The notes: a model not told the origin generated them from the letters alone. A DNA stretch of 20,000 nt from an uncultured virus (IMG/VR IMGVR_UViG_3300042880_000230) (IMGVR_UViG_3300042880_000230), one strand, 5' to 3'; counted from the stretch's first letter, positions 1 through 20,000 are shown. Numbers and translations are program-made.

Positions 1-91
1 GACATGAGATGCTCTAGCACCTGTGTTCGCCTGTCCGGCCTATGAGCGCAATTGATGAGATAGACTCTGTCGAACAACTCTGTTAGTGTCT

Positions 92-283
92 TCATGGGTC
101 TACTGCTTCGCCACCGCCTTCTTCGCCACCGCCTTCTTCGCCACCGCCGCCTGAACCGCTAGGCAGGGGTGCAGAGCTTGATCCGCCAGAAGAGTAGACG
201 GAACTGCTAGACTCCGACACCGAGGTGCTAGTCTTTGCAGACCCGCTGGAAGACGAGGGGGAGGATGAGGAGGATGATGTCAT
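92..283 (-). CDS. Ser/Gly-rich low-complexity microprotein (63 aa)
   Basis: ATGA overlap with the upstream gene; 25 of 63 residues are Ser, using mixed codons; EEGGG repeats. Confidence 0.55.
   Translation of the reverse strand: MTSSSSSSPSSSSGSAKTSTSVSESSSSVYSSGGSSSAPLPSGSGGGGEEGGGEEGGGEAVDP
106..148. repeat. 15-bp tandem repeat, about 2.9 copies (GGGEE)
   Basis: cttcgccaccgcctt at 106-120 and 121-135, partial copy at 136-148. Confidence 0.95.
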
Positions 284-1758
284 TCGCGTGGGTAGGCAGA
301 GTTGATAAATGCTTCGTTAGCTTCAAACTGTTGGGCAGAGCGCGACGGGAATCGCATCCCGACAAATCCTTTCCGAATAGCCGTCAGTCGCACGCACACC
401 TTTGCAGGTCTCCTGCCGAATCGGTAGCACTCGACAATCAGTTCGCCGCGAACCACCCTAGCGCATCGCACTGGACCAGTATCTCCTGACGCACTACACA
501 CTTCGACAGTATCGTACTCGCAGACTGCCATGAAGCGAGGATCGACAGGCACCCGCGAAATCCGACCCTTGATCTTTAGCGTCATCACGTCATCGAACCT
601 AACATCAGGCATCTCATGCGCGAAGAGGGCAGCGTAGCCTGACGCGAGCCACGGTGCAGGCACGATAGCAGTGGACTTGTCAGAGCCGAGCGATGCAGAG
701 CTAGTGCTGGAGCCGGACGAAGAAGAGCTAGAGCCCGGGTCTATCTTGATCCCTGTTAGTGCAGGTGCAGCAATGACCCCTGTATGCCGCTGCTGTAGCC
801 ACAGAACGTCAGCGCCTGCCTCGTCTTTGACCGTGATGAACTCCGCTAGTAAAACGTGTCCGGTAGTTTCGGTGTTCACTGGAGCGGACGTAGTCGATAT
901 GATAGAGCCGCCCGTTGGTGTGTAGTAGTTGACCGTGATGCCGTTGATAGTCCTGCTAGCTTTAGAGAAATTGATCTGTGCGTAGACGCTGTGGCTAGCG
1001 GATACTGTAACGGATGCCCCGCCGATACCTACTTCCCGCAGCGAAGCAAACGGGATGCCTGTGACGGTAGCGCTAGCCCAGTCAGCGTAGGACACCCTGC
1101 CCGCAGAGAAATAGGCAGTGGTTGCGCCTGTCATCGCACCCGCAAACCCTAGCTTCCAGTCTAGCGTAGCCGCCTGCGGGCTATCTTCGTACACTTCCAC
1201 GCTAACAATCTTCACGGCTGCGCCCGACGCTACAAGCTCAAACTTGTTGAGCGCCACTAGCATCTCGCCGTCCTGTGCGGTTGGCGCTGTACCGTTTGCA
1301 AGGAATGCAACTTCAGCCCGCAGGGCCGACACACGAAGCCAGGAAATGTAAGTACCCGGCGCTAGCACTTTGTAGGGCGCGGGCGTAGCACTCAGCTTCG
1401 TATAGGTAGTAGACGGGTCGCCCTCATGCACCATAACGACAGAGCGCTCTATGCTGTGCGATCTCTGGCTAGTCGCGCCTACCGGGCGCTGCCGCAGCCA
1501 TTGCGATTGACCGTCCGTTAGGCTGACGCCGAACACGCCGCCTCGGTCTACGACGTAAGGGAAGAGGGAGCGGCGGGCATCAAGCGCCTCCTGCGCTAGC
1601 TCAATCACTACCATACTGCCTTCACGGCGAAGGCGAATGCCCGGTCCTTCCGAGACGCCTAGGCTGTTAGCGCCGACCTTGTTTACCTCCGCCGCAATCC
1701 GATTGAGCGCCGCAGCCAGTTCCGGCTGACCTGTGATTTTGAAGGTTCCTAGTGCCAT
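280..1758 (-). CDS. Putative tail-tip protein with poly-Ser linker
   Basis: ATG at 1758 (MALGTF), 4 nt after the upstream TAA, is preferred over 1815. Beta-rich body, GSSSSSSGSSTSSAS linker, then a distinct C-terminal domain starting KSTAIVPAPW. Confidence 0.65.
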   Translation of the reverse strand: MALGTFKITGQPELAAALNRIAAEVNKVGANSLGVSEGPGIRLRREGSMVVIELAQEALDARRSLFPYVVDRGGVFGVSLTDGQSQWLRQRPVGATSQRSHSIERSVVMVHEGDPSTTYTKLSATPAPYKVLAPGTYISWLRVSALRAEVAFLANGTAPTAQDGEMLVALNKFELVASGAAVKIVSVEVYEDSPQAATLDWKLGFAGAMTGATTAYFSAGRVSYADWASATVTGIPFASLREVGIGGASVTVSASHSVYAQINFSKASRTINGITVNYYTPTGGSIISTTSAPVNTETTGHVLLAEFITVKDEAGADVLWLQQRHTGVIAAPALTGIKIDPGSSSSSSGSSTSSASLGSDKSTAIVPAPWLASGYAALFAHEMPDVRFDDVMTLKIKGRISRVPVDPRFMAVCEYDTVEVCSASGDTGPVRCARVVRGELIVECYRFGRRPAKVCVRLTAIRKGFVGMRFPSRSAQQFEANEAFINSAYPRE

Positions 1759-1762
1759 GGCG

Positions 1763-2536
1763 TTAGTAAATGTCGGCGTCCCATCCAGCCCTACCTGACA
1801 GCTTCCAGCTTTCATGCAAGCGAAGACCGTTGCCGACGGTCTCCATCCGAGCAGTAGACTTGAGCCATGTGCGCGTGCCTACGTTAGGGAGGAGGTACGA
1901 AGCTGGCGGTGTGTCGATCTTGCCTAGAGATGCTAGGTTGATGCCTTGCGTTATCTTCGTGCGGTCAGGGATGGTGCGAACGCGGGTGTAGACTAGCCCT
2001 GGGCTATAGTAGGACTTGATTCCGGCCTTGGGGTTAGGCGCTCCAGAGATGAGCGGTCGGAAGCCTAGGAACTCTCCTGTCTTTTTGTCGAACTCGGCAC
2101 CATTCTTCCACGTTGCAGGATCGGCAGGCTTGCCAGCAAACTCCGGGAAGTCAGGGTGCGTCTCAATAGGCTCGCTGTCTGTGGCTCCTTCCAGCGTGTA
2201 CGTTACAAGCTCACCGTCCTCGCCTGTAGCCTGCTCCGGCATACCCGGCCCATTGCTGCCGGGAGAAGGCTCTGGATCGACTCCTTCAAAATTCACGCTA
2301 ACAGTCGCCAGGTAGCCTTCGATCCTCCTGATGGTAGCCTTCTTCCGCATAAGCCAGGAAAATTCTGGATGCACTTTGAGCGCCCTGACTAGCCTAATGG
2401 CATCGTCGTACTTGCAGGTGTACTCAAGCACGGCGCTGCCTACTCCGCTGTCGTCGATCTCTATGCTATGGTCAACGCCTTCGACTAGCGTTGCCAGGGA
2501 GCTACCAATGTAGAGGATTCTGCTAGTGTCTGCCAT
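1763..2536 (-). CDS. Putative distal tail / tail-tip protein
   Basis: Immediately downstream of the tape measure gene; contains EPIETHPDF. Function inferred from synteny. Confidence 0.55.
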   Translation of the reverse strand: MADTSRILYIGSSLATLVEGVDHSIEIDDSGVGSAVLEYTCKYDDAIRLVRALKVHPEFSWLMRKKATIRRIEGYLATVSVNFEGVDPEPSPGSNGPGMPEQATGEDGELVTYTLEGATDSEPIETHPDFPEFAGKPADPATWKNGAEFDKKTGEFLGFRPLISGAPNPKAGIKSYYSPGLVYTRVRTIPDRTKITQGINLASLGKIDTPPASYLLPNVGTRTWLKSTARMETVGNGLRLHESWKLSGRAGWDADIY

Positions 2537-2543
2537 AATGTTA

Positions 2544-4925
2544 TCAGGTTGAAGTCACGCGGAGAACTGACGTATTGCTAGTATTTTTCGAGATGCGTTC
2601 AAGCTCGGAAAGGATAGCCCTGTCCAGAGTGCCGCCTGCGGATGCAGGAGACGTGCCGCCTAGCAGAGTATTAGTCTTTGCCGAGTTCTCGTTGATAGAC
2701 TGCAAAGTCGTTAGCTGCTGGCGCTGAACTTCCGCAGGGTCTTGCTTGCCCGCAAAGAATCCGCCGCCACCGCCCATGCTCTGCAAAGAGTCCGCCACGC
2801 CTTGAAAGCTAGGCCCGTTCTTAGCTTTATCGGCACGGGCATTTACTAGCCGTTCTGCAAGCGATGCTGCTTCGATGTCGCTAACGCCTGTAGCTTCGAT
2901 GATAGAACGCTTCTCGCGTAGCAGGTCGATCTCGCGCTGTATCCGGTCAGCCGCAGTAGTGTCGCCCGCAGCCTCGGCTTCTGCCGCTGCGATGCTGCGC
3001 ATAATATCCTCCTTAGACTGCGCCTGCTTCTTTTCCTTGTCCATCTGCTCGGAACTTTTCAGAGCTTGGCTAGGGTTCCACTTGGTAGGGTCGAACTTGA
3101 AGAAAGATGATAGTCCGGCGGCTGGCCTGATGTCCTTCTGCGCATTCTTTGCCCACATCGCAGCCTCCGCGTTGCGCTTGTTCTCGTAGAAGATTCCACC
3201 GAGCGCATCCTTAAGAAGGTTAGCGTCTACAGCTAGCTCGGCGTAGTATGATTTGGTTTTACCGCTGGCACCTTCAATGCCTTCGGCCCTCGTTCTCTCT
3301 AGCACTTTCTGGAATTGCTCAAGAGCCTCTGTGCTTTTACGCATTTCCTCTTCAGTCTTCGATTCCAGAATAGTCTTGTTAATCGCAACGAACTGCTCGC
3401 GCAGGGCGCGGAGATTAACGACCGCACCTCCGTCGCTATTATTGCTCATTGCCGATATTGCAGAACCCATAAGACCTACCATTTGCGTAAGCCCGTCCAC
3501 TGCGGATTTGATAGGACCGCCAGCCATAGACCCTATGCGAACCTGAAGGTCGTCTACGGCATTGCCTAGCTTTTTCGCACTGCCTGCCGCAGTATCACCG
3601 ATAGCTTGCTCAAACCTAGCGCCAGCGCCCGCTGCGCTTTCCATCTTAGCCTGCATAGCCCCGAAGCTGCTAGCGTTTGCGGCTAGGATAGAAGAGATGT
3701 CAAGGTTTTCCGCTCCGAAGAGTTTTACTAGCGTGCTTTGGTCAAGCCGCGCTAGCTTTTTCATGATGTCTTCAACCGAGTTTAAGCTAGGCGATAGCTC
3801 ATACGCGGCCACGCCTGCGCTAGCCATAGCCTCTTCCGCGTCCTTGGTAGGCGCTACCAGCCTAGCAAATATTGCGCCTAGACCGCGACCAGCCATGCCG
3901 CCCCTGACACCGTTGTTTGCCAAGATTGCCAGTGCCGCCGACACTGTCTCAATCGGGATTTTCATCGCGGACGCAACAGGCGCAATGAACTTCATGGACT
4001 CACCCATGTCGTCGATGGAAGCAGGCGATGCGTTAGCGGCTGCCGTTAGCGTGTCGATAATCCGTGTCGTGTCTTTTGCGCCTAGCTGAAACGCCGACAT
4101 AGAGGCGACCATAATTTCGGCAGCACGGCCCATCTGAATTTCTCCCGCCGCCGCTAGGCGAAGCGTAGCTGTTAGCGAGCCAGCAGCCTGCTCGGCGCTC
4201 ATACCTGCCGCTACTAGCTCCCGCAGTCCTCCCGCCTTTTCGATAGAGTTGAAGGCGTTACTTCCTGACAGAGCGGCTTCCCTAAGAGTATTGAATGCGG
4301 CGGACGTTTTGTCGATCTCACCTACCGCAGCGACTCCAGCCATAGCCTGCTCAAAGTCCATAGCGTCCTTGATCGTGTCCCGCATAACCGCGCCAGTCGC
4401 CGCAAGCACAGCCGCAGGAGCGGCGAATCTTCCTAGCATCGACAGATTTAGCATGCCGCCTCCACCCGCGCCGCCACCCGCGTCAGCGACGCTAGCGCTA
4501 CCGCCGCTCATGACCGCAGTGCGGTGCCGAGACGTTACGCTCTGCTGCGAGCGCTTAGATACGGAATTGATAGCAGTAGACGCTCTGTTAGCATTAGCGG
4601 CGACAAGGGCTAGAGAGGACGCCATCGTCGCCAGCACCTGCTCTATCCCTGCTAGCTTACTCGCGGACGAGGCTAGCTGACTTGCAGAGTTTGAGCTAGC
4701 CAGCAGCTTCTTGTCAAGATCCCCGGTCGCTGTAGCCATCGCGTTCATCCGCTTGACGATAGCTTCAGAAGGTAGGCTTTTTTCCAGCCGGGTGAACATC
4801 GACATGACCCGCGAAGTACGGCCCTCCAGCCTAGCCAATCCCATGTCGATCTGCTTCAACCCGGCCAAAGCATTGCTAGGGTCGGAGAGGAAGTCAATTC
4901 CTACATTGGATTGGGTAGTACTCAT
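2544..4925 (-). CDS. Tail tape measure protein (TP901-type core)
   Basis: 793 aa, Ala-rich, helical; DFEQAMAGVAAV, GESMKFIAPVA, LANNGVRGGMAGRGL, KLFGAE. Confidence 0.95.
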   Translation of the reverse strand: MSTTQSNVGIDFLSDPSNALAGLKQIDMGLARLEGRTSRVMSMFTRLEKSLPSEAIVKRMNAMATATGDLDKKLLASSNSASQLASSASKLAGIEQVLATMASSLALVAANANRASTAINSVSKRSQQSVTSRHRTAVMSGGSASVADAGGGAGGGGMLNLSMLGRFAAPAAVLAATGAVMRDTIKDAMDFEQAMAGVAAVGEIDKTSAAFNTLREAALSGSNAFNSIEKAGGLRELVAAGMSAEQAAGSLTATLRLAAAGEIQMGRAAEIMVASMSAFQLGAKDTTRIIDTLTAAANASPASIDDMGESMKFIAPVASAMKIPIETVSAALAILANNGVRGGMAGRGLGAIFARLVAPTKDAEEAMASAGVAAYELSPSLNSVEDIMKKLARLDQSTLVKLFGAENLDISSILAANASSFGAMQAKMESAAGAGARFEQAIGDTAAGSAKKLGNAVDDLQVRIGSMAGGPIKSAVDGLTQMVGLMGSAISAMSNNSDGGAVVNLRALREQFVAINKTILESKTEEEMRKSTEALEQFQKVLERTRAEGIEGASGKTKSYYAELAVDANLLKDALGGIFYENKRNAEAAMWAKNAQKDIRPAAGLSSFFKFDPTKWNPSQALKSSEQMDKEKKQAQSKEDIMRSIAAAEAEAAGDTTAADRIQREIDLLREKRSIIEATGVSDIEAASLAERLVNARADKAKNGPSFQGVADSLQSMGGGGGFFAGKQDPAEVQRQQLTTLQSINENSAKTNTLLGGTSPASAGGTLDRAILSELERISKNTSNTSVLRVTST

Positions 4926-4926
4926 G

Positions 4927-5094
4927 TTAGTGCAGGTGTCGGCAGATTAGTCCTTGAGTGGCGAAGTGACAGTGTTCGTAACTGAATGCAGTAGCTAGCG
5001 ATATGTCGTGTAGAATTTGATCCGGCAGAAGCCCACTAACCGCCCGCACTGAAACAATCAGTCTGATTGGCCAGGGGGCGTGCAGTCGTTTCCC
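4927..5094 (-). CDS. -1 frameshift extension of the tail chaperone (gpGT analogue)
   Basis: From GGGAAAC (5088-5094) the -1 frame reads GKRLHAPWPIRLIVSVRAVSGLLPDQILHDISLATAFSYEHCHFATQGLICRHLH* and ends at TAA 4927-4929, 1 nt before the tape measure ATG. Confidence 0.85.
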   Translation of the reverse strand, partial: GKRLHAPWPIRLIVSVRAVSGLLPDQILHDISLATAFSYEHCHFATQGLICRHLH

Positions 5095-5603
5095 TCCGTG
5101 CGGGGTAGGCCCGGAGTAGCGGGAGCGCTAGCTAGAACGCGAGTGCGCCCGCCGTCCTGAAGGTACTGCGTCACTTCTGACACTAGCTCAAACACCGCAG
5201 GGCCGTAAGGGATGGACGCGGAGAACTCCTCGACCTGCTGCCTGTAGTCGGGCGCTTTCGAGACGGCTAGCGCTTCTCGGCTAGTAGGCAGGCTGCCGAT
5301 AAATACGACCTCGCACGCAGCCAGCACGGTGTCTGCCACGTTATCGGCTTTCGCTGTGACTAGCGCATTGTTGCTGCGCATGAAGATCATCAGGTCGGAC
5401 AGGGTCAGGCACCGGAGATTAAAGCCTGCGACAACCCATCCGCTTCCATCCAGACCCGCCGCCTCACCCTCACCGATAACCAGTTTCGCAGCCTCCTCAT
5501 CCGGCAGCGCGGGAGACGCGCCGCCGCCTAGCACTGCGTCCAGTTGCTTGTCTTCTTCGCTGTACGCTGCGGCAGGCTGTGCTGTTGCTCTCTTAGGTCT
5601 CAT
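5058..5603 (-). CDS. Tail assembly chaperone (lambda gpG analogue)
   Basis: Directly upstream of the tape measure gene; in-phase slippery heptamer G GGA AAC near the 3' end. Confidence 0.8.
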   Translation of the reverse strand: MRPKRATAQPAAAYSEEDKQLDAVLGGGASPALPDEEAAKLVIGEGEAAGLDGSGWVVAGFNLRCLTLSDLMIFMRSNNALVTAKADNVADTVLAACEVVFIGSLPTSREALAVSKAPDYRQQVEEFSASIPYGPAVFELVSEVTQYLQDGGRTRVLASAPATPGLPRTEGNDCTPPGQSD

Positions 5604-6133
5604 TCTTGTGGGGTGGTGGTGGGTAATTGTGTTTCCGGCGTATGCACTAGCCGTTCAAGTGCGGAGGGTACAGGCTCGGCAGTCGCAGGCTTCATCCCTC
5701 GGCGCAAAGCCGCGATGTGCTTGCGAGATCCTTCTGTTAGCCAGAGGTGCGTCTTGACTCCCTGCTGGTCGTGTACCGCCATAGGCACCACAGCCCGTTC
5801 TGACAGGTGCTTGCGTTCGATGTCTGCGAAGTTGATAATAGCGGCTAGCGCAAATGAGAGCGGGCAGACAGGGTTTTCCGCGACATAACGGAATGGGTCG
5901 CTAGACGCTACTAGCGCTTTCGATACGTCCACGATTCTCTCAGGATCGTGCGACTGGAAAATGAAGATCGCCTGCCTGTGTCCGCTAGCGTACTGGACAA
6001 GTTTTGCAGGTCTTGCAAGTGGCACCCCCACAGAGAGGAGTGCGGCGGCTAGCACCCGGTCTTTGACCACATAGGTGTTGCGGTTCTGTAGGTCCACGCC
6101 TTTGGCGCGAATAGCGTTAGTGTCTCTGGCCAT
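5600..6133 (-). CDS. Hypothetical protein in the tail operon
   Basis: ATG at 6133 (MARDT) is preferred over the listed GTG at 6157, which lies inside the hairpin. Contains KDRVLAAALLSVGVPL; ATGA overlap with the chaperone gene. Confidence 0.65.
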   Translation of the reverse strand: MARDTNAIRAKGVDLQNRNTYVVKDRVLAAALLSVGVPLARPAKLVQYASGHRQAIFIFQSHDPERIVDVSKALVASSDPFRYVAENPVCPLSFALAAIINFADIERKHLSERAVVPMAVHDQQGVKTHLWLTEGSRKHIAALRRGMKPATAEPVPSALERLVHTPETQLPTTTPQE

Positions 6134-6162
6134 AAAAGTTAGCCGGGGAATTAGCACCCGGC
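6134..6162 (-). terminator. Possible weak terminator/hairpin after the tail tube gene
   Basis: Minus strand GCCGGG-tgctaattc-CCCGGC followed by TAACTTTT just before the next ATG. Confidence 0.35.
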
Positions 6163-6183
6163 AGGGTTAGAACTCAGCCTGCG

Positions 6184-6561
6184 TTAGGCTCCGATAGCGT
6201 CCCAGCTCTTCAGCGAAACCACTGTCTGGATGTAGTCTTCATTGGAGAGGGTGACTTGGATCTTTGTGATGTAGAGCGTGCCGACGATCAGTTCACCGGA
6301 GAACACGGCAGCGTTAGCGAGGACCACAGTATCGCCCACGTCGTCGTTACTAGTGCCCGGTGCGCCGTAGCCAGTGATTTCCACTTCGTTGCCGCGATTG
6401 TAGAAGGCCGCGTTGCACACCTCTCCGCATCCGTTACGGATTTCCTTCAGGTCGCTACTGAGCGTGAAGGAGACGGACTGGGTTTTCAGGGACAGCTCTT
6501 CGTCAGGCACGCCCCACACGGGCGGACCAGAGCCGACATTTACAAGGTTAGCGCATGCCAT
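6184..6561 (-). CDS. Putative major tail (tube) protein, compact 125 aa
   Basis: Acidic, beta-strand pattern; synteny upstream of chaperone and tape measure; has its own promoter-like element and a downstream hairpin. Confidence 0.6.
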   Translation of the reverse strand: MACANLVNVGSGPPVWGVPDEELSLKTQSVSFTLSSDLKEIRNGCGEVCNAAFYNRGNEVEITGYGAPGTSNDDVGDTVVLANAAVFSGELIVGTLYITKIQVTLSNEDYIQTVVSLKSWDAIGA

Positions 6562-6594
6562 AAGTTGTGAGTAGAGTCAGGGTTAGTGTCCCGA

Positions 6595-6626
6595 ACTGAA
6601 CCACATACCCGGCTCCATGTCAATAC
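6595..6626 (-). promoter_or_regulatory. Candidate promoter for the tail tube gene
   Basis: Minus strand gtaTTGACA-N12-TGTGg-TTCAGT: perfect -35, 17-nt spacer, extended -10-like TG. Confidence 0.5.
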
Positions 6627-6634
6627 CCTGGCGG

Positions 6635-7249
6635 CTATTCCTCTGACGTGCATAGCCTGCGCTGCGCCCGGTACATGGACGGAACGCGAGCCGCTATGGT
6701 CAGGATGGTCTCGTAGTATATCTCTGACTCCACTTCCGGCAGCGTGGTATTGTAGACGATTGGCCAGGCAGAGGAACCGTCCAGCGTGGCGTCGGTCTTG
6801 CCGCTGTCGTCCATCTCTATCGCGTCCATTACTAGCGCAACCCAATCCTCGTGGCCTAGCTTAGAGCCTGCCACCGTAGGGTGCGGGTTGAGAGCGCCTG
6901 CCGCGATAGATGTTAGAATGGAAATCTGAATCTGCCTGACCGCCGTAGTAGGTGAGTCTTTCGCCCCTTGCTTCGGCATCGTAGGCCCTAGCGCTCCTGC
7001 GTAGTCACTGCGGGTTTCGGTAGTCAGTGTGCCTCGGTATCGGACGCATGGAAGCTCGCCCTCGCCGATGTCTTCAAATGCACTGCTTGCAAAAAGTACG
7101 CTCGCGCCGGAAGCCGAAGTCTTAACAGGCAGTTTCATTCCGGCTAGCATCCGCCCTGCGGCATGGTCGCGGGCTAGCCTTTTGAAGATGCAGGCTATAG
7201 GAGCGTTATAGACGGCGAATCGTGAGGTGTTAGGGATTGGTGTCTTCAT
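6635..7249 (-). CDS. Putative tail terminator / tail completion protein
   Basis: Synteny only (between the gp10-like and tail tube genes); TAATG overlap with the upstream gene. Confidence 0.45.
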   Translation of the reverse strand: MKTPIPNTSRFAVYNAPIACIFKRLARDHAAGRMLAGMKLPVKTSASGASVLFASSAFEDIGEGELPCVRYRGTLTTETRSDYAGALGPTMPKQGAKDSPTTAVRQIQISILTSIAAGALNPHPTVAGSKLGHEDWVALVMDAIEMDDSGKTDATLDGSSAWPIVYNTTLPEVESEIYYETILTIAARVPSMYRAQRRLCTSEE

Positions 7250-7788
7250 TACATGGAAAGTACGGCTTGAATAAACTGGCGCATCGAGGCCCGAGCAGTC
7301 AGTCTCATAAAGGGCAGGGCGTCTCTAACGATCCACATAGGACGAATCCCGCGCACCCTTTTAGCAAAGACGAAGTCACGGCCTGCGCGAAACTTAGGCT
7401 TACGCTTCGCAGCCCTAGCCTCAATCAGCTCCTGCACTACGACCCTAGGGCCAGCCTGCGCGGCGCGTCTAGTTAGGGGTACGAATAGCCGCTTGGCGTT
7501 TTTAGGGCCGTGGGCTTTAGTGCCTCGCTCAAGGAACACCATAGTCTTCGACGTATTTACAACCATGATGGCTGCTCCGCCTCTGGTAGACACGCTGTTG
7601 CGGACTGCCCACGCCTTCCTTGTTAGGCCAGTCCACCGTTTAGGCGTCCGAAGTACCATGCGACCGCGCCATACTTCGGCAATCCGGCGCATCACCTTGT
7701 CCTGCGCCTCGGGCGTCAGCGCAATCCGCAGCCTGCGCAGTTTTTTGCGCAGGTCTTGGGTGTTAGCGATGACACGGATTAAAGCCAT
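7249..7788 (-). CDS. HK97 gp10-like neck/tail-completion protein
   Basis: Very basic; RTPKRWTGLTRKAW, MVFLERGT, VRGIRP. Confidence 0.75.
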   Translation of the reverse strand: MALIRVIANTQDLRKKLRRLRIALTPEAQDKVMRRIAEVWRGRMVLRTPKRWTGLTRKAWAVRNSVSTRGGAAIMVVNTSKTMVFLERGTKAHGPKNAKRLFVPLTRRAAQAGPRVVVQELIEARAAKRKPKFRAGRDFVFAKRVRGIRPMWIVRDALPFMRLTARASMRQFIQAVLSM

Positions 7789-7789
7789 A

Positions 7790-8395: not shown

Positions 8396-8425
8396 AGGTG
8401 CTAGCGTTAGGTGTGTTCGGTTAGT

Positions 8426-9219: not shown

Positions 9220-9261
9220 AGCAGAGTTAGCTTGGTTAGTGTTAGCGGTTAGCCGCGAAAG

Positions 9262-11125: not shown

Positions 11126-11132
11126 TTTTCTT

Positions 11133-11741: not shown

Positions 11742-11746
11742 ATCGG

Positions 11747-12267: not shown

Positions 12268-12297
12268 GCGGGACCGTAACGCACCGAGGGCCGCTAG

Positions 12298-12543: not shown

Positions 12544-12556
12544 GGCGTCCCCTATA

Positions 12557-13408
12557 TCAGAAAGGTGACAAATCCACAAGACCCTGCCGCAAAGAATGTT
12601 GCGCGGAAAACCCGGTGCGGGCGGCTTTCTCCGTCGATGCTAGCGAACGCCTGACTCCGCAATCCTGTGTCGGCGTTACGCGGATCGAAGACTTAGAGCG
12701 CGTCAGCATGCAGACCGCAGCCGCTAGCGTACCTAACGTAGTAGCTTTCCCTGTACCGACGTTATACACTCCGGCTCCGTGAAAGTCGAATGCGTAGTGG
12801 ATGATGGCTCTTACCACGTCTCTGACATGGACGAAGTCGCGGCTGACATCTGGAGAGCCGTGGATGTAGATAGGCTCGCCGCTAGCCGCTGCCCGAAGCA
12901 TAGCAGGAACGACGCCTCCTAGCTGGCTAGGGCCGTACACGTTAAAGAACCGCAGAGCCACAGCACTCCGATTCCTGCCAGCGTACTCCTCGACTGCCTG
13001 CTCGCCTAGCCGCTTAGTGTGCCCGTAGATGCAGGCAGGCGCTAGTCGGTCAGACTCTCTGCTAGCCCATCCCTTTCTGACTTCTCCGTAGACTGCGGCG
13101 CTGCTAGCAAAGACGACCCGCCTGACGCGAGCCTTGCGGGCGGCTTCTAAGACCGTGCGTGTGCCGTCTACGTTGACCGCCGCACAGCGCGAGGGATTAG
13201 CCAGCGCCTCGCCTACGCTAGAGACGGCAGCTAAGTGAATGACGGTGTCGGCACAAGCCACCGCCCTCTCCACTGCCTTTCGGTCTAGGATGTCGATGCC
13301 TCCCGGCAGGGCTAGGTCTAGCGCCTCTGCGTCCGCTAGATTTTGCAAGGCGTGCAACAGGTGCGTGCCTATGAATCCGGCTCCGCCTGTAACAATAACC
13401 TTTCGCAC
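12557..13408 (-). CDS. NAD-dependent nucleotide-sugar epimerase/dehydratase (extended SDR, GalE/WcaG-like)
   Basis: VTGGAGFIG Rossmann motif, VIHLAA, FASSAAVYG, catalytic YGHTK (YxxxK), LRFFNVYGP, RDFVHVRD, YNVGTG. Confidence 0.95.
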   Translation of the reverse strand: MRKVIVTGGAGFIGTHLLHALQNLADAEALDLALPGGIDILDRKAVERAVACADTVIHLAAVSSVGEALANPSRCAAVNVDGTRTVLEAARKARVRRVVFASSAAVYGEVRKGWASRESDRLAPACIYGHTKRLGEQAVEEYAGRNRSAVALRFFNVYGPSQLGGVVPAMLRAAASGEPIYIHGSPDVSRDFVHVRDVVRAIIHYAFDFHGAGVYNVGTGKATTLGTLAAAVCMLTRSKSSIRVTPTQDCGVRRSLASTEKAARTGFSAQHSLRQGLVDLSPF

Positions 13409-13414
13409 AGCCTT

Positions 13415-14050
13415 TTATGCTAGGATTTGCGCTATGCGCTCTGCGGTTAGTATGCCGACCGCTTGCAGCAGTTCAAGTCCGCTAGTAACACGCGGGTCGT
13501 CTGAGAATAAAGCAGAAGGCCAAGTTGATAGAGTTATGACTAGAGCGCGGACGGTAGGATGTGCGCTGACCGCAATAGCCTCTTTTTCGGAGCTAGTAAA
13601 AACCTCCCAGAATGCTGCGCTGTTAGCCCAAATTTTGCGCGTAGATGCGGCCAGCTCCTCCGCAGTCATATTCCGCACTTCCCAATCACGCTCTACTCGA
13701 TCAGAGTGCCACACTAGCAGAGGTTCCGCAACCATGCCTGAAATAACTTCAGGCGCGGCTAGCTTGACTAGCGGCACTACTTCAGGGGGAGTCCACAGCA
13801 GGCCAGGATATGCCGACGGATCTCGATTGATAGGCTCGAGCTGCGGCGTATCTGGAGCCGCGTCCTCCGACAGCACAGGGTCAGGAGCATTCCATGGTGC
13901 CCGAGGATCTTGATTCCATGGTGCCCGAGGATCTTGTGCGGTAAACATACCCGGCGGCGTAGCCGCTAGCCAGTCAGGCTCGCCGCAAGGTGTCGCCGGA
14001 AGATCGACGAGCTGGAGTGTGCTGGAAATTCCAAAGGTCTTCATAAGCAT
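13415..14050 (-). CDS. Fibre-associated protein (possible fibre assembly chaperone)
   Basis: ATG at 14050 lies 1 nt after the fibre TAA and is preferred over the listed 14080 start. The C-terminus FTSSEKEAI..DDPRVTSGLELL..GILTAERIAQIL resembles small proteins commonly encoded right after phage fibres. Confidence 0.55.
   Translation of the reverse strand: MLMKTFGISSTLQLVDLPATPCGEPDWLAATPPGMFTAQDPRAPWNQDPRAPWNAPDPVLSEDAAPDTPQLEPINRDPSAYPGLLWTPPEVVPLVKLAAPEVISGMVAEPLLVWHSDRVERDWEVRNMTAEELAASTRKIWANSAAFWEVFTSSEKEAIAVSAHPTVRALVITLSTWPSALFSDDPRVTSGLELLQAVGILTAERIAQILA
13889..13936. repeat. Perfect 24-bp tandem duplication (encodes QDPRAPWN x2)
   Basis: attccatggtgcccgaggatcttg at 13889-13912 and 13913-13936. 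Confidence 0.97.
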
Positions 14051-14051
14051 G

Positions 14052-17000
14052 TTAGGAGCCGATTGCCAGTTCTTGAGCAAAAATTACAGCCTGCCATCGC
14101 CAAGTCTGACCAGATACCCCGGTGCAGTTGACCTCAAGGGAGTCGGTACCGTCCGAGACTGTAACGGAGATAGATGTTGTCGCTGTGACGTCTGCTCCTA
14201 CTGTAGTTACGGCTCCGACTAGGCTGGATGTTCCCGCCACGTTCTTGTACGAAACCTGACGCATATACCGCGCCACGTCTCCCGCAGTGCTGGTTCCAGT
14301 AATCAGTATCAGAGCCTGTCCTACTGTATCCGTAGGGATGGACATCCCTGGCCGAGTTACTAGAGTCCATACAGATGTCCAGTTAGGCCCTACGCCAGGC
14401 TCTGTCGTAGCTCCGCTAGTGTGCGGTTGGCTTACATAACTCCCCTGCTTGTTGTAAACCCGCACTCCAGTACCGTAGAACGTGCCTGTCGTCCACTTCA
14501 CGCCCCAGGATTCGGAAAGAGGGACGGATGCGGCGGACCCCACACTGACTGCATGAAGTACAGTTGTTCGCGACAGGCTATCGCGTGACGTTGCCGAGAT
14601 AAGACCGCTATTGGCCACAGCGATACCTTGCCCAGGTCGAATACGCAGCGTTTCGACTAACTGGTTTTGAGTACTGCTTCCGCCAGCAGAGGCTGGCGCT
14701 GTACGCGCTATAAGCTCTCCACCTACCCCGCTACCGCACCCTCGAGACGAATCCAGAGTAAAAGATACCGACGCCAGTGAGGAATCTGCGACTGTTCCAG
14801 AGTTAATTGATATAGTCTGTGCTGAAATAACCGAAGTGTCAGAGACGCCGAGTTGCAGATTATTTGCGGCTCGCCTTCGGATATACAGGTCTGGCGAGCC
14901 AGGTACAGTAGTAGAGTTAGACCAAGATACGTTATAGTCGCTCCTGAGCCTGAGTCCTGTTACTGAAGAGTTAAGCTGCGCCACGGATAGGACGTTGCAC
15001 GCCGTAATTGATGTCGCGCCAAACTCTGCTGCTACCCCAGACCCCGAAATATAGTTACCATTAGCACCTACCTGAAGACGTAGTATGGTCTGCCATGCAC
15101 CTCCAGAAACTCGTCCTTGAAACGCTAACTGAGATGTTGGATCAGCAGCACCGCTTGCGTTTAGGCTGTATGACCTCCACTCCGTAACTCGAGACTCCGC
15201 TGGAGTTGACGCCCACCCAGCCCCGAGCCACGCTATAGCAGGGCTGTTCTGATTAAGGACAGCAGTAGATGCAGTAGTGTTTCGCAGCGTCAGGTACGGA
15301 GTAATGCCAGCCCCTATCGCTTCTGCGTTACCTAGCGTGATCGTGCTGCCGGAAACAGAAGAGTTGGTAACAGACTCAAACGCGCCCGCGTTGTTGTACT
15401 GAAGCTCTCCGGTGGCTCCGCCAGGTGTTCCTCCGCTTCCGCCAGCAGGCGCTGCCCACGTCCCATCGGCTCGTAGAAAATTCGTAGTGCCTCCACCGGA
15501 CGCAGGCGCTAGCCCTTTGACCGAGGTAGTAAACGTGTCTAGGACGGCGGTTGCGGCAGCACTATTTGCTGCTGTCATTAAGCTCTGCCCGGTAGCTGTG
15601 CTGTTAGAGATGTCAGCCGCCACTAGCGTTACAGTTCCGGTCTTGCCTGCAACAGAAAGCACGGGAGCAGTAGGATAGGACAGTGAAGTCCAGTTGCCGA
15701 TAGAGCTGCTAGGCTCGGCGGTAACGATGTAGACCTTACCATCGTCGCTCCTGATAGCCCAGTCTCCGCGCTGGCCTACTAATGCTAGCATCGCTGCTTG
15801 GTTAGCTACGGTGCCGAGATACTGACTGATGGCTAGGTCAGGAAGTTGCGCAGTATCCAGCTTCCCGCCTACCAGATCCGCTTTAGCAGACAGCGCCGTG
15901 TCTAGACCCGTAATCGTACTAGTAGCCTGTGTACCTGTATGGTTAGTGCGGCTTAACAGGTAGGCGTCCGTAGAGTTAGCGCTGAAATTGCTAGGGTTGC
16001 TGCTTGGGTAAGCGCCAATAAGCGTAAGCGTCTGCGCCGCCGTCTTCGACTCCCACACGTTAGTGCTTGCGTTTTTCACAAGCACCGCAACCTGACCGGA
16101 CAGGCTGTCAGTTACGTTATGCAGTTCGCCTAGCTCATACCCGTTGTCTACCTTAATGAAGAGACTGCCGACCGTAGCGTGGACGCGCTCGACATATGCT
16201 ACGCGGACGCCGTGCTGTGGAGCAGGAGGCTCGGTAGCTGTTAGTGTCCCTGCCGTAGAGGATAGGAACATGAGAGCGCCAGCCGTCAGCAGCGAGGTGT
16301 CGAGATTGTACATCGGACCCTGCACTTGGACAAATCCTTCCGCGCCAGCCGCAATCGTCTGCGACACCAGACCTAGCGTGCCTGCGCTAGTAGATTCCGA
16401 TGCAGCGCTAGCCAGACGGACTGCGACCCGGTTGCCTTGCGCTCCGCTAATGTAGACAACCTGACCTCGCGTCATTGTCAGGGCAGTGTCGTTATACACC
16501 CTAACGTACTGCTGCACCCCTAGCTTCAAGGTAACGGTCTCAATCCCGACTTCCGGCACCTTTTCACCTGAGTCGTAGCGCATAACGCCAGCGGACAGGG
16601 CGGTGGTCGGAGTCTGCGCAAGCACTAGCGCATCCGTAGAGACTGCGCCTGCGTCGCTTACGCTAGCTCCGCTGTTCTGAATAACTTTGCCCGTCGTTCC
16701 GTCGAATCGGACGATAGCGTTATCGGTAGAACTAGCAGGTCCGGTCACGTCGCCAGATGCTGCGGCGCTTGACAGCTTCCAGACGGTTTCCCACGAAGCG
16801 CCTGTCCCCGGCTCTGTAGCTAGCGCAGAGGTGTGTGCTGCCGTACAAAGGTAGGCGTTCCCGTCGTTGCCTACGACCGTGTCGAGGGCATACGCTACGC
16901 CGGACTGCCAAGCCGCACCGCCGTAGACCCTAACAGACACTGTCTTGGTCGTAGGGTTAAGCGATACCGTTCCAGCGCCCAGCACCGAAAATGTTAGAGT

Positions 17001-17480
17001 ATCGTCACGACCAGAGGCTGTGATGCTAGTGCTGCCTGCCGCCGCAACATACCGGAAGACGTTCGACGCATAGAGCGATGGCGCTGGAGGCGGAGCGCCG
17101 ATGTCGCTTGCCGGATTAGCCTGCAAGGTCAGACGCCCTAGCACAAAAACCGTCTTGATCCCGCCAGTGCCAGTCCCGCGAACTACGAGGTAGAACGTGC
17201 GCGACAGGATCGAAGGCGCGGACGGCAGCAGGTTAGTCTGCTCCGGCGTAAAGGATAGCAGGTGCGGGCCGGAGCCTAGCGTCCCGACGTAGGTAACGGT
17301 AGCTAGCGGGTCTTCTCCTAAATTCGCGTTCTGGTAAATCTCCGCAACCAGTTCCTCGAAAGTGCCGTTAGAGAGGTCTCCTTCGCAAGACAGGATGAGT
17401 GTGTTAGCGTTGTACGCTACGACCGAGACCGGGACTACGCCGGAGGTTGAAAGGGCTAGGTTGACGGTCTGCGGTTCCAT
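14052..17480 (-). CDS. Large mosaic fibre / virion decoration protein (1142 aa)
   Basis: Ser/Thr/Gly/Ala-rich. Typical phage fibre modules: GDVTGPASSTDNAIVRFDGTTG, RTNHTGTQ, VLSVAGKTGTVTL, NFLRADGTWAAP, PGGATGELQYNNAGAF. Also two CBM5/12-like modules and a capsid-cement/head-fibre-like segment. Confidence 0.8.
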   Translation of the reverse strand: MEPQTVNLALSTSGVVPVSVVAYNANTLILSCEGDLSNGTFEELVAEIYQNANLGEDPLATVTYVGTLGSGPHLLSFTPEQTNLLPSAPSILSRTFYLVVRGTGTGGIKTVFVLGRLTLQANPASDIGAPPPAPSLYASNVFRYVAAAGSTSITASGRDDTLTFSVLGAGTVSLNPTTKTVSVRVYGGAAWQSGVAYALDTVVGNDGNAYLCTAAHTSALATEPGTGASWETVWKLSSAAASGDVTGPASSTDNAIVRFDGTTGKVIQNSGASVSDAGAVSTDALVLAQTPTTALSAGVMRYDSGEKVPEVGIETVTLKLGVQQYVRVYNDTALTMTRGQVVYISGAQGNRVAVRLASAASESTSAGTLGLVSQTIAAGAEGFVQVQGPMYNLDTSLLTAGALMFLSSTAGTLTATEPPAPQHGVRVAYVERVHATVGSLFIKVDNGYELGELHNVTDSLSGQVAVLVKNASTNVWESKTAAQTLTLIGAYPSSNPSNFSANSTDAYLLSRTNHTGTQATSTITGLDTALSAKADLVGGKLDTAQLPDLAISQYLGTVANQAAMLALVGQRGDWAIRSDDGKVYIVTAEPSSSIGNWTSLSYPTAPVLSVAGKTGTVTLVAADISNSTATGQSLMTAANSAAATAVLDTFTTSVKGLAPASGGGTTNFLRADGTWAAPAGGSGGTPGGATGELQYNNAGAFESVTNSSVSGSTITLGNAEAIGAGITPYLTLRNTTASTAVLNQNSPAIAWLGAGWASTPAESRVTEWRSYSLNASGAADPTSQLAFQGRVSGGAWQTILRLQVGANGNYISGSGVAAEFGATSITACNVLSVAQLNSSVTGLRLRSDYNVSWSNSTTVPGSPDLYIRRRAANNLQLGVSDTSVISAQTISINSGTVADSSLASVSFTLDSSRGCGSGVGGELIARTAPASAGGSSTQNQLVETLRIRPGQGIAVANSGLISATSRDSLSRTTVLHAVSVGSAASVPLSESWGVKWTTGTFYGTGVRVYNKQGSYVSQPHTSGATTEPGVGPNWTSVWTLVTRPGMSIPTDTVGQALILITGTSTAGDVARYMRQVSYKNVAGTSSLVGAVTTVGADVTATTSISVTVSDGTDSLEVNCTGVSGQTWRWQAVIFAQELAIGS

Positions 17481-17512
17481 TTGCCTGACTGATACTCCCG
17501 CCGCAGGCTAAG

Positions 17513-18097
17513 TCAAGGCATCGCAGCCGCTTCCTCCCACAAAGGCAGGTCATCCGCGTACAGCGCCCGCACGATGTCCCGTGTTAGCGCGGACGGCTCT
17601 TCGATGTCGTTATCGCACTGCACCTTGTACAGCTTGCAGCCTTCCGGCAGCATAGCCCATTGCGGTCTGATTAGCTCGTCACAGGAGAGCGGATCTTGAG
17701 CTAGCCCCCACCGCACGAAATCTCCGAATGACTTGCCTGACACGTCGCGGAAGCGCAGTGGGCAGCGAGCCGTGAATGCCGGGGAGGAGGTTCGATAGAA
17801 CCAGACTTTCCGCAGCCGCACTAGCGGGTCTTCTACTAGCGCGAACAGTTGCACGCCTTGCAAATTTTCGATGGGAGTGGGAGGTGTCTGCGTCTCAGAG
17901 AAGGAGCGCCCCAGCACGTTACGCAGGCCCGCTAGCTTCCTAGCATAACCGTTCGTATCCGGGCTGGAGTAGGTGCGGACGCACCATGCTTTACCGCCAT
18001 CCACATGGAAAGGCGCTAGGGCGCATCCGCGTCCCGAGATTGCGGCGGTAGTTTCACGCCATAGGTGCGACTTGGCAGGAAGAGCGTATGCGTGCAT
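17513..18097 (-). CDS. Sulfotransferase (Sulfotransfer_2)-like protein, degenerate
   Basis: FALVEDPLVRLRKVWFY resembles FxFVRDPxxRLxSxY; SFGDFVRW, DELIRPQ and VRALYADD resemble the family C-terminal half. No recognisable PKxxxTS 5'-PSB motif. Start uncertain. Confidence 0.45.
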   Translation of the reverse strand: MHAYALPAKSHLWRETTAAISGRGCALAPFHVDGGKAWCVRTYSSPDTNGYARKLAGLRNVLGRSFSETQTPPTPIENLQGVQLFALVEDPLVRLRKVWFYRTSSPAFTARCPLRFRDVSGKSFGDFVRWGLAQDPLSCDELIRPQWAMLPEGCKLYKVQCDNDIEEPSALTRDIVRALYADDLPLWEEAAAMP

Positions 18098-18770
18098 AGG
18101 TGTCTTGGATTAGAGCGGCGATGTCCTGACCGTGCGGCATGCCTAGGATGTCGCTAGAACTTCCCGACTGAACGAAGTACGGACGGCACCCTGTCAGCAT
18201 TGTACCGTGAGACGCTAGCCACTGGTCATACGGTCTAAAGGTCTGCGGCACGATACCGGAAGCGATTTCGGTTTCGCAGGGCACTGACACTAACACATCG
18301 TCGAAGACGTTGCGGTGGTAAAGGATAGCGTGCGTGGTGACCATTCCCTTAACCGTAAAAAGCTCGCCGCAGTCGTGCGGAAAAACCCGGAGGGCGGGAG
18401 TTGCCGGACGCCAGTTAGCGCGACAACCTCCAAGGTTTACCGTGTTCCAGTGCGGTGCCTTAGCTAGTGTCTTGAAGAGGAAGTCGTGGAGCTGTCTGGA
18501 GTTGACAGGCAGCGCATCGTCTTCCAGCACTAGCACTCCTTCAGCGTCCTCCGCCGCTGCCATAGCAATCGCCCTTCGATGGGACGCGGCGCAAGCCAGG
18601 TCGCAGAGCGCGACTCGCTGCGGGCCTTGTATGTTAGGGCTGATCTGTACGCCTGGGATAAACTCTAGATCGAAGATTGCCGTTAGGCCGCTAGCGTCCC
18701 ACGCCGCCTCCAGTTCCTCGCGCCTGTCCTCGCGGCTAGGCAGGCTGATGCAGAAAGTCCTGAGCCTCAC
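18054..18770 (-). CDS. Glycosyltransferase, family 25-like
   Basis: FCISLPSREDRR N-terminus, ACAASHRRAI, LVLEDDA (acidic donor-binding motif), TTHAILY, PYDQW, VQSGSSSDI fit the GT25 pattern. Confidence 0.8.
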   Translation of the reverse strand: MRLRTFCISLPSREDRREELEAAWDASGLTAIFDLEFIPGVQISPNIQGPQRVALCDLACAASHRRAIAMAAAEDAEGVLVLEDDALPVNSRQLHDFLFKTLAKAPHWNTVNLGGCRANWRPATPALRVFPHDCGELFTVKGMVTTHAILYHRNVFDDVLVSVPCETEIASGIVPQTFRPYDQWLASHGTMLTGCRPYFVQSGSSSDILGMPHGQDIAALIQDTYARIRSSCQVAPMA

Positions 18771-19429
18771 ACCGTCCAGTAGTTGACGGCGGCTTGCGCC
18801 ACGACGAGTTCAAGATAACCGTTAAACGGTGCGGCGGTAGTGCGGTCGTAGGCCGGGACTGTGCTGAGGCATTTAACGTGAAGGAACGCGCCAGGTTTAG
18901 CGACGCCTTGCAGCGTGTCGTACTTGTGGGTGCCGCCGCTTAGATAGTAGACAGGCTGAGGCGATCCGTCAAATGCTAGGCAAGCGCCTGGCATTAGCCG
19001 AAGCCCTGTGTTCAGCGAGGCAGGGTCGGAGATGAGAGAATCCGACATGCCCCACATCATGATGTACGGCGTGCGGTTGTACATCGACAGCAGGACGGGA
19101 GGTCGGGAGGTGCCGACAACCGTCTGCCCGTCAGGGTCCAGACCTGACGAATTCCACCCTCCATAGCAGACCCAGTAATTGTGAGGGTGCGTGGTCGAAG
19201 TTGTTAGCGGATTCAGCGAGATAGTCAGCATGTTCCGCAGCGGGTCCAGCGCGGCAGTAGTTCCGTTAAGCGGCCAGAACTTTCCGCTAACAACACGGTC
19301 TGCGCCTGGGAAGCTAGACGAGGACTTTCCTCCCGGCTCGTTTGAGATGGTGTAGTTGCCTGCGGCGCTAGGGATTTCCGGCGTTACGACGGCTCCTGCG
19401 GCAACACGAAAGAAAGGCTGTACGTTCAT
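18767..19429 (-). CDS. Hypothetical protein (220 aa)
   Basis: 4-bp ATGA overlaps with both neighbours; Gly/Pro/aromatic, beta-rich looking; no recognised motif. Confidence 0.7.
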   Translation of the reverse strand: MNVQPFFRVAAGAVVTPEIPSAAGNYTISNEPGGKSSSSFPGADRVVSGKFWPLNGTTAALDPLRNMLTISLNPLTTSTTHPHNYWVCYGGWNSSGLDPDGQTVVGTSRPPVLLSMYNRTPYIMMWGMSDSLISDPASLNTGLRLMPGACLAFDGSPQPVYYLSGGTHKYDTLQGVAKPGAFLHVKCLSTVPAYDRTTAAPFNGYLELVVAQAAVNYWTV

Positions 19430-20000
19430 TGGGAGATGCGTGTTAGGGATGCTAGATCCAGACTGCGGGTTTGAATAATAGCGTCAGGGTTAGCTGGCAC
19501 CGCTACTAGACTGATCTCGAAAAGGTAGGCTTTGCTGATCGTGCGCCCGTCCGGCTCGTACAGCCAGATGCCGCCGATAGACAGGGTGCGCAGCGACTTC
19601 TCCATTAGCGAGAACCTAACGTGTTTCATCTCAGGGGAGTTAGACACCTGGCCTTGCACGAACAGGCCGCGCTCGTCTTCCCTGACAATCGTGTAGTGCC
19701 CTGCGATATTCTCGACGATCTGGCGGTGATCGACTAGCATAACCGGGTTCATCATGAAGTCGCGGATAGTCTCACGGAAAGCGCCGACCTGAATGTTATC
19801 GCCGTGCCTGTCTGACGCCGTGACATGTGCCCAGGTGCTAGCGTACCCGGCGAAGCTCACGTTCTGGTAGTCCACTACCTGCCCGGTCTTGTCGTCTTTG
19901 ACCGCAACACCCTTCGCGTCCGTATCCAGGCACTGCCTGCGATTAGCTAGCTCGACGCGGCGGGACTCATGCGGAGTGTCTGTAATAGCCAGGGCGCAGG
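19426..20000 (-). CDS. HK97-family prohead (capsid maturation) protease, 5'-truncated by window edge
   Basis: Motifs FAGYAST, DRHGDNIQVGAF, PVMLVDH, REDERGLFVQG, LSIGG, EISLVAVPANPDA. The frame stays open upstream of the listed GTG (19875) to the window end (..CALAITDTPHESRRVELANRRQCLDTDAKGVAVKDDKTGQV). Confidence 0.93.
   Translation of the reverse strand, partial: CALAITDTPHESRRVELANRRQCLDTDAKGVAVKDDKTGQVVDYQNVSFAGYASTWAHVTASDRHGDNIQVGAFRETIRDFMMNPVMLVDHRQIVENIAGHYTIVREDERGLFVQGQVSNSPEMKHVRFSLMEKSLRTLSIGGIWLYEPDGRTISKAYLFEISLVAVPANPDAIIQTRSLDLASLTRISQ

Follow-up and report, generated by a model that had tools for sequence, protein, structure and literature searches.

The stretch of DNA analysed here, 20,000 nt from an uncultured virus (IMG/VR IMGVR_UViG_3300042880_000230; hereafter the window), contains 20 open reading frames (ORFs) of at least 100 aa, all on the minus strand, which tile it and cover 92% of its length (Table 1). 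The window is rich in CTAG, the tetranucleotide that most prokaryotes and their viruses avoid, and this enrichment is the subject of the present analysis. The major capsid protein encoded in the window shares only 25–30% identity with those of the nearest cultured phages. A longer virus record, G001 (34,421 nt; 39% complete according to CheckV), is 99.6% identical to window positions 1–18850. Beyond the window it carries a second GT25 gene, a weak FkbM-like methyltransferase match, an AAA ATPase, and genes for a DnaB-type helicase, a 936-aa family A DNA polymerase (PolA), and a DnaG-type primase; therefore, this phage replicates with its own enzymes. All 9 of the 9 public sequencing runs holding the window were lake or other freshwater or aquatic metagenomes, and the source is an uncultured, probably virulent, tailed phage of lake water.

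CTAG occurred 189 times in the window against 74.8 expected from base composition, an observed-to-expected ratio (O/E) of 2.53. The over-representation proposed in the initial annotation from hand counts (10 CTAG in positions 1–1020 and 9 in 3601–3900) thus holds for the whole window, and a recount reproduced both counts exactly. Among the 256 tetramers, CTAG had the second highest O/E after TAGC (3.18). GCTAGC was found 51 times against 6.1 expected by composition (8.3-fold), CTAGC/GCTAG 217 times on both strands (5.1-fold), and CTAAC/GTTAG 90 times (2.8-fold). CTA/TAG was the most over-represented trinucleotide (1.60), and the TA dinucleotide was unsuppressed (rho 1.08). Under a maximal-order Markov model, 162 CTAG were expected (O/E 1.17). 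The enrichment extended over 18 of the 20 window ORFs (O/E >1.2) and every 2-kb bin of G001 (O/E 1.26–3.24).

Table 1 Features of the window and of related contigs discussed in the text.
Feature	Contig	Position	Strand	Remark
Tape-measure protein gene (793 aa)	window	2544–4925	-	PhageMin_Tail 3e-34; CTAG 28 vs 8.9 expected
Densest CTAG stretch, inside tape-measure gene	window	3601–3900	-	9 CTAG per 300 nt
Stretch outside listed ORFs	window	8396–8616	.	221 nt; 5 CTAG, 10 CTARC/GYTAG
HK97-type major capsid protein gene (546 aa)	window	9348–10988	-	Pfam Phage_capsid; CTAG 15 vs 6.1 expected
Clade-specific module between prohead protease and capsid genes, plus small ORFs	window	11133–19429	-	~8 kb
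NAD-dependent epimerase	window	12557–13408	-	Pfam; 14 CTAG, O/E 4.6
1142-aa protein	window	14052–17480	-	weak, sub-threshold CBM5/12 match
GT25-like glycosyltransferase	window	18054–18770	-	Pfam
Mosaic boundary, window vs G001	window	18489–18839	.	all 74 single-base differences
Prohead serine protease gene, Peptidase_S78	window	19426–20000, cut by window end	-	Pfam
DpdA	G307	3987–4820		phrog_887, 3.9e-28
GATase-QueC	G307	4826–6085		QueC 5.9e-49
FolE	G307	7245–8138		1.4e-57
QueD, QueE	G307			in the same cassette
C5 cytosine methylase, lineage B	L082	5787–6851		PF00145 6.9e-45
ParB-TerS slot holding the cassette	G307 (L042)	3313–8745		
ParB-TerS slot holding the C5 methylase	L082	5179–7435		likewise in L080–L082
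ParB-TerS slot, empty	G303 (L046)	541–1640		ParB-like gene abuts TerS
ParB-TerS slot, empty	G304 (L045)	18569–19702		ParB-like gene abuts TerS
HNH endonuclease-like protein (369 aa)	L042; L082	1572–2681; 3429–4538		phrog_99
GroES-like co-chaperonin	L042; L017	13139–13420; 658–969		

Within the 20 ORFs, the 173 CTAG consisted of 113 CTA|G and 60 NCT|AGN, with 0 in the third frame, in agreement with the codon sources that the initial annotation had named. A by-product of codon usage, or a translational codon-pair preference, would be in keeping with the unusual frequency of CTA among the leucine codons (163/535, 30%) and with the favoured NCT and AGC codons. However, in 300 synonymous permutations within genes, CTAG reached only 98.4 ± 6.9 copies (O/E 1.76, z 10.7), and none of the 300 attained the observed count. 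The O/E remained 1.76–1.94 across synonymous and whole-codon shuffles of the window, and the 37 ORFs of G001 gave 282 CTAG (1.84-fold, z 14.9) under synonymous permutation. In the same permutations of the window, GCTAGC was counted 46 times against 15.8, CTA and TAG were enriched 1.34- and 1.53-fold, and GCTAAC, an additional context in which CTA/TAG had been thought frequent, occurred 28 times against 12.9. Because the excess survives these shuffles, is symmetric between the strands, and is also seen outside ORFs, an origin in codon usage is very improbable.

The excess is a property of the DNA: it appears in each reading frame in which the word can occur and is carried almost entirely by silent third positions and intergenic bases. 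CTA made up 54% of the CTN codons before G (n = 342) as against 10–23% before other bases, and GTA 39% of GTN before G. NCT was used in 67% of cases before AG (n = 145) and in 23% elsewhere (n = 2319); before A, its share was 42–69%. Serine was encoded by AGY in 77 of 120 cases after CT (64%) as against 171 of 605 otherwise (28%). Reverse complements behaved alike in the synonymous permutation of G001 (CTA z 16.1 and TAG z 15.5; GCTA 1.81-fold and TAGC 1.78-fold; TAAC 1.63-fold and GTTA 1.73-fold), and this strand symmetry holds although all genes share one strand. In stretches outside ORFs, some of which may be coding, CTAG was enriched 2.5–2.8-fold, CTAGC 4.8–5.7-fold, and GCTAGC 5.2–5.9-fold. 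Dipeptides able to encode the word were enriched at most 1.1–1.4-fold, so the proteins are barely touched. Selection for off-frame 'hidden stops' is not favoured, since TGA is depleted (0.81), reverse complements are equally enriched, and intergenic DNA shares the bias. Primases start at CTA/TTA-type sites, and Chi-like words offer a second analogy; neither is favoured, as the word is not oriented with respect to the strand and there is no obvious reason why a trinucleotide should need to be enriched. An ultraviolet signature is not favoured either, because TC/GA and AA/TT lacked the required shift.

Searches with the capsid protein, by which the clade and its relatives were delimited, and with portal and terminase probes recovered three CTAG-rich lineages: the window with G001 (lineage A), lineage B (L001–L004, L012, L017, L030, and L080–L082; 29 kb; 73% capsid identity to lineage A), and contig G307. 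This contig probably represents the upstream portion of lineage A, with whose trinucleotide O/E profile its own correlated at 0.96; it was present with 0 differences in X1 and 3 in X2, the two runs containing the whole window, and with few in X3 and X4; and a bridging contig, L050, placed a G307-type end ~300 nt from a window-type end on the protease gene side. Scans with 23-mers extended lineage B and otherwise added only a 1.5-kb fragment of the window's lineage. Of the 32 loci whose TerL was at least 42% identical, four were CTAG-rich (O/E 1.96–2.44) and 28 were at 0.07–0.86, including L083, whose TerL is 72% identical (O/E 0.11). Capsid relatives at 58% identity or less had CTAG O/E of 0–0.76 (L005, at 58%, 0.13), and none of the PolA relatives (up to 41% identity; O/E 0.04–0.90) was CTAG-rich. 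Compared with the relatives, CTA/TAG was raised 3.1-fold and TAA/TTA 2.1-fold in the clade, and TCA/TGA, CCA/TGG, CGA/TCG, and CAA/TTG were lowered to 0.72–0.78. These results indicate that CTAG richness is specific to one small clade of uncultured freshwater phages. With a 2.5-fold excess in the clade and ~0.1 in the nearest relatives, the family offers a natural experiment on oligonucleotide signatures in phages. The contrast is sharp: the family shares one gene order and the palindrome purge described below, and the nearest CTAG-poor relative has a capsid protein 58% identical, compared with 73% between members of the clade.

What is enriched is the pentamer CTARC/GYTAG and not the palindrome; CTAG and GCTAGC are over-represented since they contain this word, which GCTAGC has on both strands. 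When the CTAG of the window were sorted by their G/C flanks, those with both flanks numbered 51 against 6.1 expected (8-fold), those with one 115 against 30.6 (3.8-fold), and those with none 23 against 38.3; unflanked CTAG was depleted in lineage B as well (7 against 36). Against the synonymous permutations, GCTAG/CTAGC (z 11–21) and CTAAC/GTTAG (z 5.5–12.5) ranked first among the pentamers of both lineages. The initial annotation had considered the palindrome itself as the selected unit. This view did not stand, since GCTAGC lay below its pentamer expectation in the window (51 against 62.3), in G001 (72 against 93.8), and in lineage B (46 against 61.6). Both flanks occurred together in 0.23–0.29 of CTAG, compared with 0.30–0.39 if independent, so that they act independently or slightly antagonistically. 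The Markov-corrected CTAG O/E was 0.93–1.10 in the clade (1.17 in the window), as its trinucleotides predict. Every single-base variant of GCTAGC showed some enrichment, which was strongest for the flank variants and for GTTAGC; the latter ranked first among the core variants (5.8-fold in lineage B and 3.4-fold in lineage A). No longer motif was found around the word; gaps between copies were near-exponential (coefficient of variation 0.94), with no periodic spacing beyond codon phase. As a separate observation, GTTGG was almost absent from coding sequence in lineage A (3 against 27) and lineage B (1 against 16.6).

Word density is kept between the two lineages and positions are not, sites being lost and regained at the ordinary silent-site rate. 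Between lineages A and B, only ~27% of the four-fold sites have escaped substitution, yet the excess is the same in the two. CTA|G was retained at 0.60 against 0.58 expected, GTA|G at 0.44 against 0.44, and NCT|A at 0.69 against 0.67; in four control contexts, retention likewise matched background plus context preference. CTAG was shared at 43 of 104 aligned sites (rank 13 of 207 tetramers), which is accounted for by the preference itself. Polarising recent mutations between the window and G001 was uninformative, as all 74 differences sit in one 350-nt mosaic boundary.

The capsid family as a whole has purged most other 6-bp palindromes. Of the 60 palindromic hexamers that lack a CTAG core, 37 have no copy in the window, against 2.7 expected by chance, and the 60 together occurred there 80 times against 347 expected. 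Across the family (the window; G001, which comprises L019 and L020; and L005–L011), such hexamers stood at 0.23–0.32 of the dinucleotide expectation, compared with 0.75 for a related locus in an Opitutus metagenome-assembled genome (MAG) and 0.5–1.0 for relatives found through PolA only. In the coding sequences of G001, GCGCGC (22 expected), GCCGGC (17), CTGCAG (17), GGCGCC (18), and CGATCG (9) were entirely missing; the palindromes are thus depleted beyond codon and dinucleotide expectation, as in restriction-site avoidance. The tolerated hexamers differ between the lineages: CCGCGG occurred 29 times in B and once in A, TGCGCA 27 times in A and twice in B, and CCTAGG 14 times in A and 0 times in B. 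CCWGG was at 0.53 of its composition expectation in the window and at 0.51–0.61 in the clade, versus 0.00–0.04 in 8 of the 8 relatives compared. GTAC was at 0.5–0.9 in the clade and at 0.00–0.01 in 6 of the 8 relatives (G303, G304, L084, L090, L106, and L103). An origin of the CTAG excess as a by-product of this purge was rejected: a simulated recoding of G001 that forbade 45 purged hexamers, GGCC, and CCWGG raised CTAG from 149 to only 152–162, as against 282 observed, and with the codon usage of the relatives from 77 to 84. Separately, TAGCTA and TTGCAA were among the hexamers that escaped the purge; neither is known to be the site of a restriction enzyme. TTGCAA was ~3-fold over its dinucleotide expectation in lineage A (34 against 9.9, G001 and G307) and in lineage B (17 against 5.5, L017, L012, and L082).

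Avoidance of short palindromes that serve as restriction sites has reportedly been described in phages by Rusinov et al. (2018, PMC6286503; see also Rusinov et al. 2015, PMC4687349). The purge of this family is a textbook case at the extreme, whereas the CTAG effect has the opposite sign, a word of restriction type being enriched. HIP1 (GCGATCGC) of cyanobacteria is likewise a short word present at more than 2 per kb in genic and intergenic DNA through silent codon choices, and GCTAGC reaches a comparable density here (2.1–2.6 per kb in coding and non-coding DNA). A HIP1-type element is a palindrome far commoner than its own sub-words predict. In this phage, in contrast, the palindrome does not exceed its sub-words (Markov-4 O/E ~0.8), the unit is an asymmetric pentamer, copies show no extra positional conservation, and there is almost no protein effect. 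The HIP1-like iterated palindrome raised in the initial annotation was therefore rejected, with GCTAGC below its sub-word expectation and its copies not kept in place beyond background. The accessible text of a HIP1 study (Elhai 2015, PMC4390886) does not mention CTAG, CCTAGG, GCTAGC, or phage.

No report of CTAG enrichment in a phage was found in the literature searched. The nearest report, and one of few on CTAG enrichment, appears to be that on thermophilic archaea, in which, according to the accessible part of the source, the same family of CTAG-centred hexamers is enriched, including GCTAGC and CTAGCC (bioRxiv 10.64898/2026.06.16.732181); the present case, by contrast, is a lake phage with bacterial-type GroES, DnaB, DnaG, and PolA. 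In bacteria, depletion of the same word has been attributed, in the portion of the source available, to very-short-patch repair, DNA structure, or insertion-sequence targeting (PMC4687349). The relatives of this phage show that classical depletion (Markov-corrected O/E 0.11–0.81), whereas it is gone in the clade, where CTA/TAG stands at 1.5–1.6-fold and only unflanked CTAG stays depleted.

The initial annotation had expected a DNA-modification system elsewhere in the genome, and such genes were indeed found in the clade. The gap between a ParB-like gene and TerS is a cargo slot. In G307 it holds a deoxyarchaeosine-type cassette encoding DpdA, Gat-QueC, QueD, QueE, and FolE, which is the gene set of phage 9g on a clade-mate contig outside the window; in lineage B it holds a C5 cytosine methylase; and in two relatives, G303 and G304, it is empty. 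The slot, occupied by a deoxyarchaeosine-type cassette, a C5 methylase, or nothing, provides a compact system for the study of site avoidance and DNA modification. The DpdA of G307 shares 30% identity with those of Seurat/9g-type phages (E 1e-11), and the cassette is as CTAG-rich as its surroundings. Phage 9g replaces 25% of its G with deoxyarchaeosine (dG+) according to the accessible text of PMC10516641, and CAjan and iggy carry dPreQ0 (PMC10484667, likewise in the part available). CCGCGG, with 29 copies against 21.4 expected in lineage B and 1 against 27.5 in lineage A, suggests from these counts that the methylase carried by lineage B has a SacII-type specificity and protects this site. 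In G001 (39% complete) and in relatives 50% and 68% complete, no match to PF00145, PF01555, or PF02086 (C5, N6/N4, and Dam-type methylases, respectively) was found. As an additional observation, an HNH endonuclease-like protein and a DUF6378 protein are encoded upstream of the ParB-like gene in both lineages (coordinates of the former in Table 1), and no match to them was found in G303 and G304, whose contigs end near there.

The further expectation that modification genes are tied to the CTAG bias did not hold, since the cargo does not track CTAG richness across the family. In principle, DpdA, the 7-deazaguanine transglycosylase of the clade, could act on CTARC/GYTAG, whose density silent changes would have raised so as to spread a protective base. 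The 9g-like cassette lies between the ParB-like and TerS genes of a contig that shares the signature of lineage A, is found at 0 differences in X1, which holds the whole window, and stands directly upstream by synteny. Phage DpdAs, moreover, are sequence-specific with differing motifs, GA or GA and GGC, in the available part of PMC10484667, and GYTA starts with G as the known motifs do. On the other hand, lineage B is equally CTAG-rich, has no cassette at its slot, and yielded no DpdA in its 29 kb. Five CTAG-poor family loci from four lineages (L084, L090, L106/L107, and L108) carry Que genes at CTAG O/E of 0.07–0.32, and 26 other viral loci with DpdAs 33–45% identical had O/E of 0–1.1. The G share in the GA motif of CAjan and iggy is not above a rough base-composition estimate, as far as the accessible data of PMC10484667 go. 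We consider DpdA targeting improbable. The same low standing applies to the broader proposal that the word would be the recognition site of a protective modification, whether this is deoxyarchaeosine that a DpdA with a novel specificity inserts or, in the sister lineage, some equivalent not yet seen, with the density of the word raised 3- to 5-fold; if true, this would be the first case of a genome that enriches, and does not avoid, a defence-related word.

A sequence-specific mutational or repair drive toward CTARC, with the word at neutral equilibrium, was also considered. The candidates were methylation followed by deamination, including the CCAG/CTGG to CTAG transitions proposed in the initial annotation, a CCA-preferring deaminase, and biased mismatch repair. 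Such a drive would fit the confinement of the bias to silent and intergenic positions with little protein effect, and the site retention at equilibrium expectation. CCA/TGG ranks third among the depleted trinucleotides (0.70), and CTA/TAG first among the enriched ones. Very few copies of CCAAC and GTTGG were counted: for lineage A, 16 against 31 and 3 against 27, respectively, and for lineage B, 12 against 24 and 1 against 16.6. GTTAGC, the C-to-T product of GCTAGC, is the more enriched in the methylase-bearing lineage B. However, the proposed precursors were undepleted in lineage A (CCAGC 1.01, GCTGG 0.98, CTGGC 0.91, and GCCAG 1.00), with 0.63–0.87 in lineage B. CCAG and CTGG did fall to 0.77 and 0.80 under synonymous permutation of the window, a drop that any excess of CTA|G entails arithmetically. 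A deamination footprint would also be expected to spare the transversion partners. Instead, the third base of CTN before G was A in 0.54, G in 0.22, C in 0.11, and T in 0.14 of codons, compared with 0.30–0.49 for G, 0.20–0.25 for C, and 0.15–0.24 for T in other contexts, so that all alternatives fall similarly and the transition partner is depleted no more than the two transversion partners at four-fold sites; NCN before A behaves alike. A CCWGG methylase should give CTTGG as often as CTAGG, and TTGG stood at only 0.35. The methylase of lineage B more likely protects CCGCGG, and the search of G001 for C5, N6/N4, and Dam-type methylases was negative. Taken together, the deamination footprint was not borne out, and a mutational drive in general seems rather unlikely.

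A third possibility is that the signature derives from the host: the clade may have moved to a host, or a host repair or defence regime, with CTA/TAG-rich DNA, which the phage mirrors. The ~8-kb module peculiar to the clade, with its glycosyltransferase, epimerase, and weak CBM5/12 protein, is unseen in the relatives and would suit a different host surface, and the differences from the relatives in CCWGG and GTAC avoidance suggest a different nuclease landscape. Very-short-patch repair is one possible process that depletes CTAG specifically. The Markov-corrected O/E near 1 in the clade is what would be expected if such a process were absent; its absence, however, explains an O/E near 1 and not 2.5. 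The sole cellular capsid match was a 16-kb contig in the Opitutus MAG, possibly a phage contig that was binned with it. Across 301 genomes of that phylum, GCTAGC never exceeded 0.44 per kb, as against the 2.1–2.6 of the phage. Samples of 20 kb from 18 genomes of the phylum, of which 16 ranked among its richest in GCTAGC by count or per kb, gave a CTAG O/E of no more than 1.1; their tetranucleotide profiles correlated with that of the phage at 0.05–0.37, compared with 0.83 between the phage lineages. The replication of the phage by its own replisome likewise speaks against a borrowed signature. The epimerase, looked up in the Atlas, provided no hint of the host. From the one phylum tested, a host origin is regarded as unlikely, though less so than a mutational drive. 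Host prediction based on k-mers would probably mis-assign these phages.

The reading that we favour, and hold only tentatively at somewhat below even chances, is that selection, weak but genome-wide, acts on the DNA in favour of a word 'licensed' in a conflict with host nucleases. Copies of this word would be harmless or protective, most other symmetric words being lethal. CTARC/GYTAG would then be favoured throughout the genome and written through silent third positions and intergenic bases, and selection would hold the density of the word as individual sites turn over. That selection and not mutation maintains the bias, and that the bias is related to anti-restriction, we infer from four points. 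All alternative bases lose about equally at silent sites, unflanked CTAG is still avoided, and the density has persisted while silent sites turned over almost completely. Furthermore, CTAG-specific restriction-modification systems are known in only 0.9% of bacteria in the accessible text of PMC4687349.

Several results weigh against a licensed word. No word-reading protein was found in the 51 kb of lineage A and 29 kb of lineage B, and the modification genes that were found do not track the bias. The lack of extra positional conservation fits a mutational equilibrium equally well, and the near-absent protein effect means that the force is weak. The palindromic form GCTAGC is sub-multiplicative, and GTTAAC, in which either strand reads GYTA, is rare (1 against 4.3). 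Selection and mutation bias are separable only with polymorphism data, and the material here consists of assembled contigs; the negative result on the host signature covers one phylum. Should the word turn out to be targeted by a modification or bound by a protein, it would represent a new kind of genome-wide signal in phages.

Other features of the locus were also noted. The window and G001 are identical up to position 18488 and 78.5% identical beyond the boundary listed in Table 1 (18851–20000); this part is a recombination mosaic. No tRNA genes were found in the window, G001, or lineage B, and searches for relatives of the protease and of a 511-aa protein at the tail end gave none. In the relative L006, the capsid gene lies close behind the protease gene, without the module that occupies 11133–19429 of the window; this insertion may serve in virion glycosylation or host recognition. 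A GroES-like co-chaperonin is encoded between the terminase and portal genes in both lineages. The epimerase gene, which is the most CTAG-dense gene of the window (14 per 852 nt), is 97.5% identical in protein and only ~84% identical in DNA between lineages A and B, where the adjoining genes share 40–89% protein identity. This pattern points to very strong purifying selection on the epimerase gene.

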